NCBI GenBank assembly: GCA_016198415.1
Contig: JACQIO010000014.1
Span: forward strand, 1-51,258
Length of the DNA: 51,258 nucleotides
Direction: 5' to 3'
Origin: Candidatus Berkelbacteria bacterium
GTDB lineage: Bacteria; Patescibacteriota; UBA1384; JACPKC01
Shown: positions 4,275 to 37,670 of the stretch, piece by piece
How the letters are laid out: every line of letters begins with the position of its first letter
Numbering within the stretch: the stretch's first letter is position 1
Program-made: the position numbers and the translations under genes
The notes under the pieces: model-generated
Databases searched by the model: none
Seen by the model: the letters and a program-made list of their open reading frames with translations, nothing else
Told to the model about the DNA's origin: nothing

Positions 4275-4342
4275 GATCGAACCCGTGATCTAGCCACGCA
4301 CTCCGTTTCCAGTAGTATCCAAGCAAAGGAGAAGGAGTGCTT

Positions 4343-5602
4343 ATGGATCGTGAACTCAACAATCTGATCGAGCAGGAAGCCACCCGCCAGCGGGACGGTC
4401 TAGAGATGATCCCGTCAGAAAACTACGTCTCCCGGGACGTCCTGGCCGCCCTTGGCTCGATCCTGACCAACAAGTACTCGGAAGGCTACCCGGGCAAACG
4501 CTACTACGGCGGCTGCGAGTTTGTGGACGGGATCGAAAACCTGGCGCGAGAACGGGCTCAGGCGCTCTTTGGCGTCACCCACGCCAACGTCCAACCCTAC
4601 TCCGGCTCCCCGGCCAACCTGGCAGTCTGCTTTGCCCTCTTGCAACCGGGCGAGACGCTGATGGGCATGCAGCTGGCCTCCGGCGGCCACATGACCCACG
4701 GCCTGGCGGTCAACTTCTCCGGCATCTACTACCATTCTGTCCAGTACACCGCCCGCGCCGATGGCTACCTGGATCTGGACGAGATGCGGGCACTCGCCAA
4801 GGCGCACCGGCCCAAGTTGATCATCGTTGGCGGCACGGCCTACCCCCGCGTCTACGAATGGGCCAAGTACAAAGAGATTGCTGACGAGGTCGGGGCTTAC
4901 CTGATGGCCGATATCTCTCACATTGCTGGCTTAGTGGTGGGCGGCGTCCACCCCTCGCCAGTGGGCATCGCCGATGTCATCACCACGACCACGCATAAGA
5001 CGCTGCGCGGTCCACGCGGGGCGATGATTCTCTGCGACGGCGAGCCGAGCAACTTCCTCAAGGCACCACCGGAGCAATCACGCCAGTACCTGCCGACGAT
5101 GATTGATCGCGCGATTATTCCGGGCCTGCAAGGTGGGCCACATAACCACCAGACGGCGGCAATCGCGGTGGCGCTCCACGAGGCGGCTCAACCCGAGTTC
5201 AAGACCTACGCGGCTCAGATTGTGGCGAACGCTCAGGCCTTAGCGATCGCCCTCATGGAACGGGGTTACACGCTCGTGACGGGTGGCACGGATAACCACC
5301 TGATGGTCGTCGATCTCACCAATAAAGGTATCACCGGTAAGCAAGCTGAGAAGGCCCTCGATGCCGCTGGCATCACCGTCAACAAGAACACCGTCCCCCG
5401 CGATCCCCGCAAACCCTTCGATCCATCCGGCATTCGCCTCGGCACGCCAGCGCTCACGAGTCGGGGGATGAAAGAGGCGGAGATGACCCAGATTGCCGAG
5501 TGGATCGACGACACCCTTTCGCATCGCGACGACGCCGATCGGCTTGAGGCGATCAAGCGAGAAATCGCCGACTTCACCCGCGGCTTCCCACTGCCGGCCT
5601 GA
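4343..5602 (+). CDS. glyA: Serine hydroxymethyltransferase
   Basis: [46 protein letters not shown] (PLP lysine), SGIRLGTPA. Confidence 0.98.
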
Positions 5603-5603
5603 G

Positions 5604-5715
5604 GTTCCACTCCCCACCATTCCACTCGCGAGTGGAATGTGAAATGTGAGGGCTCCGACCAGACTTCCACCTCCCCAACATCCACTTCTCAAGTGGAAAT
5701 GGGGATGTGGAAGTC
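5604..5715. repeat. Two tandem imperfect ~50-bp palindromic units with TTCCAC/GTGGAA cores
   Basis: Perfect 22-bp palindrome CATTCCACTCGCGAGTGGAATG (5618-5639); second unit GACTTCCAC...TCCACTTCTCAAGTGGA...GTGGAAGTC (5662-5715). Confidence 0.8.
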
Positions 5716-5729
5716 GGTACGAACGGAGG

Positions 5730-5772
5730 CATGGTGAAGGCGGCCTTGCGGCCGCCTTCGATTGTGCCCTCC
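5730..5772 (-). terminator. Repeated cassette-end hairpin, copy 1
   Basis: GAAGGCGGCC-TTGC-GGCCGCCTTC (5736-5759); 5730-5760 is identical to 7331-7361. Confidence 0.75.
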
Positions 5773-5800
5773 GGAACCCTCGGCTTCCCTCTCCAGACGC

Positions 5801-6313
5801 CTAGCGGGAATGGGGCGCGGTGCGCAGCATCCCGCGGATGTAGCGCTGCTCGTCCTCCGTCAACTGGTGGCTCAGGTCCTCGAGCAGTGCCACCGTCAAC
5901 TGGGACGGCGCATACCCCAGATCCCGAAGCTTGGTCTCCAAGTAGTGAGGGATGAAGTCGAGATGCCGGTAGATCCTTTGCCCAACGTGGCCAGGCGTCA
6001 GGACTACGTCCTCCCACCAGTCGACATCCCCCTTCAAGAAGTGGGTGTAGTGGATCGGGTGACGGAGTCTCCGAAACCCCTTCTCGACGACGGTCCGCAC
6101 CGCGGAACCGCTGATGCCGGCCGCTACACCGACCAAGCGCTGACTGAGGACGACGGCACCAGTCTCCACGTACAGCCCTCGGGCCAGGAAACGCTGCCTG
6201 GGCGTGAGCATCTTGAGCATCCGCTCCTCCACCTCGCCCATACCTTGATCACCGAGGAGTTCGAGAATCTCCTCCTCGGGGGACTCCCCGAAGACGGCTC
6301 TGAACAGCCGCAT
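5801..6313 (-). CDS. Sigma70 region-4-like HTH protein (170 aa)
   Basis: ATG after GGGAGG; LTPRQR...VG...VR....KGFRRLRHP matches the spacing of RpoD domain 4. Confidence 0.65.
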   Translation of the reverse strand: MRLFRAVFGESPEEEILELLGDQGMGEVEERMLKMLTPRQRFLARGLYVETGAVVLSQRLVGVAAGISGSAVRTVVEKGFRRLRHPIHYTHFLKGDVDWWEDVVLTPGHVGQRIYRHLDFIPHYLETKLRDLGYAPSQLTVALLEDLSHQLTEDEQRYIRGMLRTAPHSR

Positions 6314-6408
6314 AATGCATCCTCCCTTCACGGGCAAGCAACCACAGGTGTTCTCACTGGATGCGCGTGATTGCTACCGAGATGTTATAGGACAAAGGGA
6401 AACCAGTG

Positions 6409-6436
6409 ATTCTACCTGTCCTTCTTGGGTTGTCAA
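6409..6436 (-). promoter_or_regulatory. Sigma70 promoter for 5801-6313
   Basis: TTGACA-16 nt-TAGAAT. Confidence 0.7.
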
Positions 6437-6454
6437 GTTGGACGTGGACGTAGA

Positions 6455-6491
6455 GAAGGCGGCCGGTTGGCCGCCTTCGATTGTGCTCTCC
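6455..6491 (-). terminator. Repeated cassette-end hairpin, copy 2
   Basis: GAAGGCGGCC-GGTT-GGCCGCCTTC followed by GATTGTGC as in copy 1. Confidence 0.75.
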
Positions 6492-6506
6492 GCTCGCGCG
6501 CGGTCC

Positions 6507-7205
6507 TTAGCCCCTGGCGTCGGTCGGCCACCCGTTTCTCTCGTTGAGGCGTTCCCGCCACCGGACGACGTCCCGGACCTGGAAGACCGGGATTCCCGGG
6601 CAGGCCAGAGCGACCAGCTGGGCGTTCGACGGATTAGTCCAGATCTCGTTCACCATCTCCAGATCGTCCTGCTCCAAGCAGGTCTGGAAGCGGGTGTTGA
6701 CCAGGATGAGGCTGCCCTCGATCGCCCCCACGAGCTTGCCCACGCCCTGGACCTGCGCCGCCTCGAGATCGACGTACAGCTCTCCGGACTCTACGAGATT
6801 TCCACGTTGGATCTCGAGTAAGACGAGGTAGAGGTCGCCTTCGACGGACACGTTGCGGAGGTTGAGTCGTGCTCCCCGTCCGGCAAACGTCAGGTCGCGG
6901 ATGTCCAGGTCGCCTTCGACGGTCAAGCCCTCCAGATCGAGCGTGCCGAGGAAGACCTTCTGGCCGTTCGGCTCCATGTGCTCCGTACGGAACCTCGTGA
7001 GCCCCAGGTCGCCCTCGACGATCACCGAGCTTGGCAGACCCATGCTCTCGAGCGAGATGCGAATGACTATCTCTTTCCTTACGCTGCTCGCGCCCACTCG
7101 CGTGCCGAGCTCGTCCATCCTCGCCTTCTCCTCGTCGTAAGCGCGATCGAGCGCCGTGTCGAAGGCCTCCGTGAACGCTTCGGCCGAGATTCGCTGCTCC
7201 TCCAT
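6507..7205 (-). CDS. Hypothetical protein with VEGDL repeats (possible beta-solenoid), 232 aa
   Basis: ATG after GGAGGAGG; IVEGDLGL, TVEGDLDI, SVEGDLYL, AIEGSLIL. Confidence 0.75.
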   Translation of the reverse strand: MEEQRISAEAFTEAFDTALDRAYDEEKARMDELGTRVGASSVRKEIVIRISLESMGLPSSVIVEGDLGLTRFRTEHMEPNGQKVFLGTLDLEGLTVEGDLDIRDLTFAGRGARLNLRNVSVEGDLYLVLLEIQRGNLVESGELYVDLEAAQVQGVGKLVGAIEGSLILVNTRFQTCLEQDDLEMVNEIWTNPSNAQLVALACPGIPVFQVRDVVRWRERLNERNGWPTDARG

Positions 7206-7279
7206 GTGAGTATCCTCCTCCGTCAGATTCGAATAGGAAATGTACACCGTGCTCGGCTGTCGCCCGCACGGGACCAAAA

Positions 7280-7308
7280 AACGTACCTGAAGCGAACCTG
7301 GAAGTCAA
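7280..7308 (-). promoter_or_regulatory. Sigma70 promoter for 6507-7205
   Basis: TTGACT-17 nt-TACGTT. Confidence 0.6.
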
Positions 7309-7330
7309 GGGAACATGGATTGAGTGCGGA

Positions 7331-7373
7331 CATGGTGAAGGCGGCCTTGCGGCCGCCTTCGGTTGCGCCCTTC
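7331..7373 (-). terminator. Repeated cassette-end hairpin, copy 3
   Basis: CATGGTGAAGGCGGCCTTGCGGCCGCCTTCG, identical to copy 1 over 31 nt. Confidence 0.75.
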
Positions 7374-7384
7374 ACCTCGCCCGG

Positions 7385-7558
7385 TTACTCCGGGCTGGAG
7401 AAGAGCTTGGGGAGGTTCTCGTCCGTCACATAGTGTTGGATGACCCGCAGGACGACCTCCTCCAGACTCAGGTCTGTGCGAGCAGCCACCCGTTCGAGCT
7501 GCTCCATGACCTCTGGACCTAGCTCATCCGGGCCAACGATGAGGATGATACCCGACAT
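7385..7558 (-). CDS. Small ribbon-helix-helix-like protein (57 aa, below ORF-track cut-off)
   Basis: GAGGAGGGG SD; MSGIILIVGPDELGPEVMEQLERVAARTDLSLEEVVLRVIQHYVTDENLPKLFSSPE; followed by hairpin copy 3. Confidence 0.7.
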   Translation of the reverse strand: MSGIILIVGPDELGPEVMEQLERVAARTDLSLEEVVLRVIQHYVTDENLPKLFSSPE

Positions 7559-7741
7559 GGCCCCTCCTCTGTTTCACCGCTTCCCTCGGTGCTCCGTACG
7601 GAGTCCTCCTCTGTCTACCAGAAACTCCCGGTGCTGGACAGGCTTGGGGTCTTCAAGTACGCTCGCCTGTCGATCTGAAGTGATGAGCTGGATCGGCATT
7701 AACATTCAGCATCCTATAGGTTCGAGGAGGAGGAAACGCGC

Positions 7742-8047
7742 ATGGCACGGTATAGCGTTGCCTGCCGAGGGGCCAATGGGGGCACGGTCGTCATCGCGGA
7801 AGCTCACTCTGAAGCCGGTCTGGATTTTCAGATTCGAGGCGCCATCGAGAAGGATCTTCGCAAAGGGTATCGGTGGAGCCGCAAAGAAGTGATCCTTGAG
7901 TTACGGCTCCGGTACGCTGCTCCTCAAGCCGAGATTCAGGCGGTCCACGTCGACGTCCACGCGCTACGAAAAGTCGATGGCTGCCTGCTCAAGGTCATGC
8001 ATTTCAACCTATTTGTGTACGATCGCGGCTTCAGAACAGACTGCTGA
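7742..8047 (+). CDS. Hypothetical protein (101 aa)
   Basis: Strong SD GAGGAGGAGG before ATG. Confidence 0.65.
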   Translation: MARYSVACRGANGGTVVIAEAHSEAGLDFQIRGAIEKDLRKGYRWSRKEVILELRLRYAAPQAEIQAVHVDVHALRKVDGCLLKVMHFNLFVYDRGFRTDC

Positions 8048-8116
8048 ACGCTCCTAACCGGAGCGTCACGAGCAACCCGCCTCAGTGGCGGGAGGAAAGG
8101 AGGTGGAGAGGTTATC

Positions 8117-8542
8117 ATGTTGATTCTCGAGAATCAAACCGTGCGTCACGCACGGCATTGGATGGATGTCATTGGGCAGCCAGACTGGGAGCCACTCGCG
8201 GCCGAACCCGACAACGTCGGCACCCTCACGCATGAGGTCAAGCCGATGCTCATAAAGCTGGTCTCTGCCAGGACCGACATCCCGGAGTGCGACCTGGAGT
8301 TGGGCGAGACCAAGGTCTCGCCCAAGAGTCGCCAGCTCATGATCACTGGGCCCGATCGGGTCCTGGCTCACTTCTGGGTCCTGAGCGAAACCCAACATAG
8401 ACTGGCGATGCACCTCGACATGGAGCAAGCAGAGCAGAAGCGCCGCGCCGCCGAATGGACCGAGACGGAGGCTACGGCCGGGCGAGAGCTCGCGCCGGGC
8501 ATCCAGCTTGGCGGGACCAACCCGCGCGCTCGGCACGGCTGA
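8117..8542 (+). CDS. Hypothetical protein (141 aa)
   Basis: AGGAGGTGG upstream of ATG; followed by a perfect palindrome. Confidence 0.65.
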   Translation: MLILENQTVRHARHWMDVIGQPDWEPLAAEPDNVGTLTHEVKPMLIKLVSARTDIPECDLELGETKVSPKSRQLMITGPDRVLAHFWVLSETQHRLAMHLDMEQAEQKRRAAEWTETEATAGRELAPGIQLGGTNPRARHG

Positions 8543-8569
8543 GAGGACAACAGGGGGAAGGAACAGCAA

Positions 8570-8597
8570 GAGGCCCGGGGTGATCACCCCGGGCCTC
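8570..8597 (+). terminator. Perfect 28-bp palindrome, possible bidirectional terminator
   Basis: GAGGCCCGGGGTGATCACCCCGGGCCTC between convergent genes. Confidence 0.65.
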
Positions 8598-8615
8598 CAC
8601 TCATGTCTCTAGTAT

Positions 8616-8636
8616 TTTCCACTTGACAAGTGGAAA
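8616..8636. repeat. Third TTCCAC/GTGGAA palindrome
   Basis: TTTCCACTTG-A-CAAGTGGAAA, same core as at 5618-5699. Confidence 0.75.
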
Positions 8637-8663
8637 GTGGGGGTCGTCGCTTGGCTGAGCGGC

Positions 8664-9734
<1,071 letters not shown>

Positions 9735-9845
9735 TCACCTCTTCATCGGCTCTGTCGATCCACACTCTACCACGACTGACGGGGTTTTTGTTCAAGCGCT
9801 TCCCACCCATGACAACTGACGCCGAACCAGGTATGATCCGGGCCG

Positions 9846-36943: not shown

Positions 36944-36981
36944 ACAACGCATTTGCCTACGATCGTAGGCAAATGCGTTGT
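36944..36981. repeat. Perfect 38-bp palindrome, downstream of the PaaX-like gene
   Basis: ACAACGCATTTGCCTACGATCGTAGGCAAATGCGTTGT. Confidence 0.95.
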
Positions 36982-37001
36982 TTGATGGAGGGAGGGAGAA
37001 C

Positions 37002-37591
37002 TCAGAGCTGAAATCGTACCCGAAGGTTCTCATCACCATCGATCCGAGCCGTCTCAAAGAACAGGACACGCTGCTCGAGCTTGTACCGCTCTCGGAGCCA
37101 ATCGATCTCGTCGCGACATGGCCACGGACAGATCCAGGCCGAGTGCTGGATATGGACGAAGCCAAGTCGGGTCAGCGTAGCGCGCAACCGATCGCGATCC
37201 TCCCGCCGCTTCTCTGGGACGTCCCAGATCACCACCCGCCAGCGCCCGTCCCACCGCTTGGGCCGTTCGAGCTCGAGCGACTCCTCTTCAAAGGCTGGAA
37301 GAAAGAGGCGCGTCTTTGAGGTCACCGTCACGTGGTGCCTAAGCACCTGCAGGTACTCTTGGCGGCGAAGACGAGCGAGCGAGTCGCGGAGCGGAACTGT
37401 CGTTCGGACAGCCAAGGCATCTTCCCGTGCGCGTAGTCCCAAAGACGACGTTGGTCGAAGGCGACCGAACCCACCTCCTCCATGAACCGTGCGCATTCGA
37501 CGAGGATGAGTTTAGCGGTTCGTCCGAGCCCGCGCACTCGCTGCTTCAATCTCTGCCCTTTCCAATGCTGCTGATCTCGATCCCGCTCCAT
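37002..37591 (-). pseudogene. PaaX-like protein (winged HTH plus Cas2-like domain), frameshifted by a 5-bp duplication
   Basis: ATG 37591 after GGGAGGG; WDGRWRVVIWDVPEKRREDRDRLRATLTRLGFVHIQHSAWICP; removing one GCGGA at 37386-37395 joins two track ORFs into a 194-aa frame. Confidence 0.85.
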
Positions 37592-37632
37592 CGAGCCCTC
37601 CCACCAAAGCGTCCAGAGTTGCTACAGGGATC

Positions 37633-37670
37633 ATAACGCATTTGCCTACGATCGTAGGCAAATGCGTTAT
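37633..37670. repeat. Perfect 38-bp palindrome, upstream of the PaaX-like gene
   Basis: ATAACGCATTTGCCTACGATCGTAGGCAAATGCGTTAT; 34-bp core identical to 36946-36979. Confidence 0.95.

Follow-up and report, generated by a model that had tools for sequence, protein, structure and literature searches.

Repetitive extragenic palindromic (REP) elements have roles in mRNA 3′-end protection and in attenuation, and the attC sites of integrons carry R″ and R′ boxes with the consensus RYYYAAC ... GTTRRRY. As described in the passages of Cury et al. (2016; PMC4889954) that deal with these sites, attC sites when folded have bases that stand outside the helix and a central spacer that stays unpaired, promoters are rare in integron cassettes, which use a common promoter, and very small genomes are without integrons. 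Here we describe a hairpin repeat that occurs three times between a glyA-like and a gmd-like gene of a groundwater-dwelling Candidatus Berkelbacteria bacterium. The window that we analysed is the whole of contig JACQIO010000014.1 (51,258 nt; contig C34) of assembly GCA_016198415.1. This assembly comprises 738,346 bases in 37 contigs, has a GC content of 61.7% and is 83% complete; the genomes of relatives measure ∼0.5–1.5 Mb.

The repeat follows three minus-strand open reading frames (ORFs), ORF1 to ORF3. An earlier interpretation made from the letters of the window (the sequence-only reading) took the three units for single-gene cassettes gained or shuffled by recombination at the hairpin. We favour a plainer account, to which we assign a probability of roughly 0.6: the repeat is a lineage-typical, U-tract-poor terminator or 3′-end hairpin that was copied locally within a variable island of orphan genes. 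The unusual part is only the triplication with shared flanks.

Three copies of a hairpin behind three orphan genes

The pattern GAAGGCGGCC-N4-GGCCGCCTTC matched the window at exactly three sites (Table 1), and none of 100 dinucleotide-shuffled controls contained a match. When up to one mismatch was allowed across the whole assembly, these three copies were the sole sites and a reversed control pattern had none. A fuzzy search of the genome with the 38-nt core, tolerating up to nine substitutions, again returned the same copies only. Aligned on the minus strand, the repeat unit is ∼44 nt long, and beyond its edges similarity is at background level. In all three copies the stem is a perfect 10 bp, with eight G–C pairs, no bulged bases and a 4-nt loop. 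The minus-strand loop of copies 1 and 3 belongs to the GNRA class.

As the sequence-only reading had it, alignment gave copies 1 and 3 as identical over 31 nt (5730–5760 and 7331–7361), and copy 2 as differing in the loop while having its other flank in common with copy 1. Copies 1 and 3 match at 39 of 41 positions over 5730–5770. Copy 2 keeps both stem arms, has the loop GGTT versus TTGC in copy 1, and is diverged in the promoter-side (left) flank; its gene-side flank matches copy 1 at 23 of 24 positions (5750–5773 and 6469–6492). The differences are clustered. With a split chosen post hoc, copies 1 and 2 differ at 1 of 24 positions on the gene side and at 7 of 20 in the loop and promoter side, and the corresponding counts for copies 1 and 3 are 4 of 24 and 0 of 20. 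Copy 1 therefore has a mosaic look: its loop and one flank follow copy 3, and its other flank follows copy 2. Such a pattern would fit exchange or conversion tracts ending within the stem and does not prove them.

Each copy lies shortly downstream of a stop codon. Copy 1 is 41 nt past the stop of ORF1 and 134 nt past that of the convergent glyA, whose transcript it could end as well. Copy 2 is 28 nt past the stop of ORF2 and 18 nt ahead of the −35 hexamer of the ORF1 promoter. Copy 3 is 24 nt past the stop of ORF3 and 28 nt ahead of the TTGACT hexamer of a promoter-like site that precedes ORF2. Of the two promoters previously called near-consensus, the one ahead of ORF1 merits the term; the one ahead of ORF2 is weaker and failed the scan criteria (Table 1). 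Besides the repeat copies, the three 3′ regions of ORF1–3 contain no further strong hairpin, and the 3′ untranslated regions (UTRs) fold better on the minus strand than shuffled sequences do (z −2.6 to −4.1). All three copies are thus GC-rich hairpins shortly past a stop (24–41 nt). None of the three is directly followed by a U-rich tract of 7–9 nt, which forms part of the definition of an intrinsic terminator (PMC3993855): the 8 nt past the stem contain 1–3 T on the minus strand, in agreement with the earlier remark that a U-tract is absent, and 2–3 T on the plus strand.

The genes themselves are unrelated to one another and to anything else that we searched. ORF1–3 showed no pairwise similarity and, as queries against 5.8 billion proteins, each matched itself alone; an exhaustive HMMER search with ORF2 returned itself and three giant repeat proteins, which matched via short repeats only. 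A GGAGG motif lies 5–8 nt ahead of the ATG of each ORF. Protein searches, pairwise comparison and coordinates together confirmed the description of three unrelated minus-strand orphan genes, each with GGAGG and each followed by a hairpin. Codon scores were 0.34–0.40 (reference, 0.32 ± 0.16), the annotated frame was the best of six, and GC by codon position equalled that of the genome's long genes. On the strength of these codon statistics and of the frame comparison, we consider ORF1–3 to be real genes of native composition.

The exact repeat occurs at this locus only. The stem was absent from the 161 further genomes of this bacterium's class that were searched, which together with the genome search bears out the restriction of the repeat to a 1.6-kb stretch. 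None of the nine glyA or gmd loci of relatives contained repeated hairpins. A blastn search with positions 4300–9800 against 40 relatives found glyA and gmd only, plus one borderline 34-nt match within ORF2. The island genes are absent from two same-family genomes in which the surrounding genes are recognisable: one (G001) keeps glyA and the glycosyltransferase gene, the other (G004) keeps folD, the glycosyltransferase gene and gmd. Elsewhere the bare stem is a common sequence of terminator type: among genomes representing each prokaryote species once, it occurs at a minimum of 120 loci in unrelated phyla. Among the bare-stem matches listed, all 120 are single sites, 59 have T- or A-rich flanks and one has a flank of the window's repeat. 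Neither databases nor publications yielded a match to this element in our searches; the literature was searched for background only, and 'Berkelbacteria' combined with 'terminator' returned no paper.

Gene-end hairpins across the genome

We compared all perfect hairpins of the genome with a set of crudely called ORFs (775 in all; 91% coding). Perfect stems of at least 10 bp numbered 68 outside the called genes (65 kb) versus 48 inside them (673 kb), a ∼15-fold higher density outside. Of the 68 intergenic hairpins, 49 are GC-rich. Among these 49, 34 lie within 100 nt past a called stop and 10 of the 49 lie past stops on both strands. The loop measures 4 nt in 25 of the 49, and 19 start with four purines (GAAG, AGAAG, AAGAG ... 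CTTC, CTTCT, CTCTT). A T- or A-rich flank accompanies only 8, so that 41 of the 49 are U-tract-poor. The three copies of the repeat are therefore built like the other gene-end hairpins of this genome, sharing a design that is GC-rich and perfect, with a 4-nt loop and mostly without a U-tract.

These results bear on two statements of the sequence-only reading. The argument that conservation exceeds what termination needs is weak, because the repeat has the same design as the genome's U-tract-less gene-end hairpins and is the sole hairpin available to end ORF1–3. The opposite possibility, that the hairpin is a generic terminator behind syntenically fixed genes, agrees with the data in part. The design is generic, 34 of the 49 GC-rich intergenic hairpins lying past stops; the exact sequence is not. 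Nor are the genes fixed, since they are missing from the glyA, folD, GT2 and gmd neighbourhoods of the two same-family genomes and searches gave no homologues.

According to the reading that we prefer, the hairpins would be the ordinary gene-end signals of the lineage, with a purine-rich 5′ foot, a pyrimidine-rich 3′ foot (GAAGG ... CCTTC) and no real U-tract. We infer that they act on RNA by termination or stabilisation: the minus-strand RNAs of ORF3, ORF2 and ORF1 would end at them or have their 3′ ends guarded by them, and each hairpin would insulate the promoter of the next gene. The 44-nt 3′-UTR module would have reached three copies in the strain-specific glyA–gmd orphan island by copying, most likely during gene addition or rearrangement. 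The module may have been copied by recombination, whether illegitimate or homologous, by a template switch at the palindrome, or through gene conversion between neighbours at a later time. The copying can be explained without a dedicated site-specific system.

Several points weigh against this reading. Identity reaches ∼10 nt past the stem on each side, the edges are sharp and the differences are clustered; to judge from the alignment, sharp edges and clustered differences resemble exchange tracts and not plain divergence. These three are also the only GC-rich intergenic hairpins of the genome that share at least 14 nt; ordinary terminators are otherwise unique here, and the copying therefore still needs a cause. 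In the part of a study of mycobacterial RNA polymerase on which we draw (PMC3993855), no termination was seen in vitro at hairpins without U-tracts. By analogy, what we call a terminator may be a hairpin that protects or processes the 3′ end; alternatively, the hairpins may be true terminators that receive lineage-specific help. The Rho_RNA_bind domain (PF07497) was not found in the 83%-complete genome.

The census also yielded repeated palindromes of a different kind, AT-rich and 32–42 nt long. One, a perfect 38-nt palindrome with central CGATCG, has two copies in the window (36944–36981 and 37633–37670) and one on another contig (C9:3791–3828). The pair at 36944–37670 flanks an ORF (37002–37496, minus strand) with a PaaX central Cas2-like domain (PF20803, E = 3e-25), and the palindromes are likely operators of this PaaX-domain regulator, whose N-terminal part may lie in another frame (ORF 37328–37591, minus strand). 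A second AT-rich perfect family (32–42 nt, central TATA) occurs at C8:1666–1701, C8:3113–3148, C28:1362–1397, C7:42021–42052, C20:3–34 and C4:52071–52112; this repeat probably breaks the assembly, as two copies lie at contig ends. A third family, again with central CGATCG, occurs at C22:1183, C22:18344 and C21:12926.

Table 1. Features of the glyA–gmd region (window coordinates)
Feature	Position	Strand	Remarks
Repeat copy 1	5730–5773	−	hairpin 5736–5759; minus-strand loop GCAA; conserved flanks
Repeat copy 2	6449–6492	−	hairpin 6455–6478; same stem; minus-strand loop AACC
Repeat copy 3	7331–7374	−	hairpin 7337–7360; 31 nt identical to copy 1
Promoter-like TTGACA-16-TAGAAT	6409–6436	−	ahead of ORF1; 11/12 (promoter scan)
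Promoter-like TTGACT-17-TACGTT	7280–7308	−	ahead of ORF2; weaker, 8/12 by eye; failed scan criteria
ORF1, orphan, 170 aa	5801–6313	−	true ATG at 6313; GGAGG 7 nt upstream of ATG
ORF2, orphan, 232 aa	6507–7205	−	VEGDL-type repeats, solenoid-like
ORF3, orphan, 57 aa	7385–7558	−	weak ribbon-helix-helix signal
glyA-like core gene	4337–5602	+	product 53% identical over 416 residues to the product of an ORF in a same-family genome
ORF4, orphan-looking	7742–8047	+	island remainder (7742–8597)
ORF5, orphan-looking	8117–8542	+	island remainder (7742–8597)
gmd-like gene	8664–9731	−	faced by GC hairpin 8570–8597

Mobile, cassette and operator alternatives

The repeat might instead be a low-copy, REP-like selfish hairpin, spread by a Y1 (HUH) transposase or a similar single-strand mechanism into three neighbouring intergenic spaces and now doubling as a gene-end hairpin. 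The genome has four Y1_Tnp (PF01797) loci above the cut-off, on contigs C3, C10, C4 and C31, and several further low-copy hairpin repeat families; moreover, the repeat is extragenic, palindromic, ∼44 nt long and sharp-edged, as such an element would be. We nevertheless consider this origin unlikely. There are just three copies, within 1.6 kb and in one orientation, and none of the 161 other genomes of the class has one. For three of the four Y1 genes, the perfect hairpins (stem of at least 7 bp) located up to 1.2 kb away are dissimilar to the repeat, and none is listed near the fourth. The 5′ foot lacks a tetranucleotide conserved across the three copies. Finally, ORF1–3 have no other end hairpin, and the copies are therefore not mere late insertions beside existing terminators.

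A cassette system, as the sequence-only reading envisaged, would consist of circular promoter–gene–hairpin units that are inserted, excised or shuffled by crossover within the stem, through some other enzyme or through RecA acting on the 31-nt identity. The layout is suggestive: hairpins and unrelated orphan genes alternate in a direct-repeat array, copy 1 seems pieced together from copies 3 and 2, the island is missing in relatives, and copies 1 and 3 enclose two genes (1.6 kb) in the manner of attL and attR. The units are modular insofar as each has its own Shine–Dalgarno sequence and its own end hairpin and at least two have a promoter; recombination at the repeat, the other half of the claim, may have occurred.

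The recombination machinery and the sites argue against cassettes, which we hold to be distinctly unlikely. Matches to Phage_integrase (PF00589) and Resolvase (PF00239) numbered zero in the 83%-complete genome, the same searches being positive in 14 of 14 and 12 of 14 control genomes, respectively. On neither strand of positions 5500–8750 was there a pair of RYYYAAC and GTTRRRY boxes 30–130 nt apart. The absence of an attC consensus and of an integrase that had been remarked upon was thus borne out, and genome-wide in the case of the recombinase families. The likeness to an integron did not survive, since two or more of the genes come with a promoter of their own and the stem is perfect, without bulged bases; integron cassettes rarely have promoters, according to the relevant passages of Cury et al. 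(PMC4889954). The native codon usage gives no sign of recent import. The hairpin with either flank had no match in JGI metagenome contigs and the hairpin with the gene-side (right, 3′ GRTTG) flank none in IMG/VR, scans from which records of the genome itself were possibly excluded.

A further, weak argument against cassettes comes from four groundwater runs of a single study, assembled as Logan contigs with k=31, in which the arrangement was the same, with no excision, deletion or reordering, and depth was flat (8.5–11.6). These contigs break at the shared 31-mer (4496–5759, 5731–7360 and 7332–7758), and k=31 is blind to junctions at a 31-nt repeat, so that it can neither show nor exclude those of deletions or circles. 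One candidate joint, 6762>9370 in run X3, was rejected as other organisms' DNA on account of its 23-nt side and depth of 130. Separately, one low-depth contig of run X3 differs at ORF1 positions 6060 and 6072, the other listed exact-match pieces of this run being identical to the window; the two differences are a slight strain variant of ORF1.

A narrower proposal sees in the hairpin the place at which crossover occurs in a minimal system of gene capture, in an ultra-small genome of the candidate phyla radiation (CPR) type without a tyrosine or serine recombinase. Promoter–gene–hairpin units would be added serially at an existing gene-end hairpin, by a Y1/HUH enzyme acting on the folded hairpin or by template switching, building up the orphan-gene island and leaving mosaic copies behind. 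We regard this as a long shot. If single units did come and go by crossover in the hairpin, this would be a cassette system that does not belong to the integron family, and its host is nearly devoid of recombination machinery.

It is equally improbable, in our estimation, that the 24-bp perfect palindrome serves as a duplex operator for an island regulator, either the ribbon-helix-helix-like ORF3 or the helix-turn-helix-bearing ORF1, controlling the promoters downstream of copies 2 and 3. The island encodes two predicted DNA-binding proteins, both on weak evidence; a −35 hexamer follows copy 2 after 18 nt and copy 3 after 28 nt; the half-sites are invariant and the loop or spacer is free to vary; and the genome uses repeated long palindromes beside a regulator gene, as at the PaaX-domain ORF. 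Copy 1, however, has on neither strand a promoter or gene that it might control, so that position fits two of the three copies only, and the promoter spacing of copies 2 and 3 differs by 10 nt. In this genome, the palindromes that are likely to be operators are AT-rich and span 32–42 nt, whereas the repeat has the GC-rich 10-bp stem and tetraloop of the gene-end hairpins. Sigma region-4-like domains, moreover, read −35-type DNA and not GC palindromes.

Lastly, duplication of ORF1–3 themselves was rejected, since the units have no protein or DNA similarity outside the 44-nt repeat.

The island and comparison with known systems

The island comprises ∼3 kb between glyA and gmd, with ORF1–3 on the minus strand and ORF4 and ORF5 on the plus strand. 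Leads to function are weak. The N-terminal ∼95 aa of ORF1 are like sigma-70 region 4, a helix-turn-helix domain; ORF2 looks, as modelled, like a solenoid repeat protein; and the ribbon-helix-helix matches of ORF3 are below the Pfam cut-offs. The five island proteins had no match in PADLOC and nothing beyond weak matches (E ≥ 0.02) in PHROGs. ORF4 and ORF5 end in a different GC hairpin, at 8570–8597, with a 12-bp stem between the end of ORF5 (plus strand) and that of gmd (minus strand); a look-alike with the same GAGGCCCGGG foot occurs at C28:4709–4737.

Both island borders carry hairpin elements of a heptad type, with the core TCCACT-N2–6-AGTGGA surrounded by TTCCAC/CCCC heptads. They lie at 5621–5636 and 5681–5697 on the left and at 8618–8634 on the right (within 5605–5710 and 8614–8640), and the genome contains the core 17 times in all. 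At the Rfam gathering threshold the whole window contained two tRNAs only; with E values of up to 1, positions 5500–8750 gave two chance matches to miRNA models on the heptad hairpin at 5653–5724.

If the repeat is an ordinary gene-end module that was copied, a reduced, high-GC genome marks the ends of its genes by perfect U-tract-less hairpins, apparently without Rho, and 3′ modules get copied as orphan genes join a variable island. This would be of use for annotating terminators in candidate-phyla genomes and would not be surprising.

Of the systems described in other bacteria, CALIN (attC arrays without an integrase), as set out in the relevant parts of Cury et al. (2016; PMC4889954), share with the window a tandem of single, unrelated genes on one strand, each followed by a related palindrome, and also the lack of a nearby integrase and the chimeric-looking sites. 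They differ in having R″/R′ boxes and a long, imperfect, bulged hairpin, where the window has no such boxes, a perfect 10-bp stem and a 4-nt loop; the genes of the window differ in that at least two have their own promoter. Judged by the same parts of that study, the genome is far under the size range in which integrons occur.

The REP elements, bacterial interspersed mosaic elements (BIMEs) and REP doublets (REPINs) of Enterobacteria and Pseudomonas, mobilised by REP-associated tyrosine transposases (RAYTs) of the Y1 family, are likewise short extragenic palindromes with conserved flanks that lie after genes, and the genome studied here also encodes Y1 transposases. They are dispersed in tens to hundreds of copies, compared with three copies in one locus of the window. 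REPINs are inverted doublets, and the window copies are not so paired. A RAYT gene is flanked by the same palindromes, whereas the window repeat is unlike the hairpins beside the Y1 genes.

Among terminators, ordinary intrinsic ones are individually unique, unlike the three copies of the window, which share both sequence and flanks. Whether hairpins without a U-tract terminate is disputed, as far as the part of PMC3993855 on which we draw conveys. The U-tract-poor, 'I-shaped' intrinsic terminators of high-GC bacteria resemble the repeat in their GC-rich perfect stem, 4-nt loop and location 24–41 nt past stops. Bidirectional terminators between convergent genes resemble it in a further respect: the palindrome of the window is usable on both strands, and copy 1 faces glyA.

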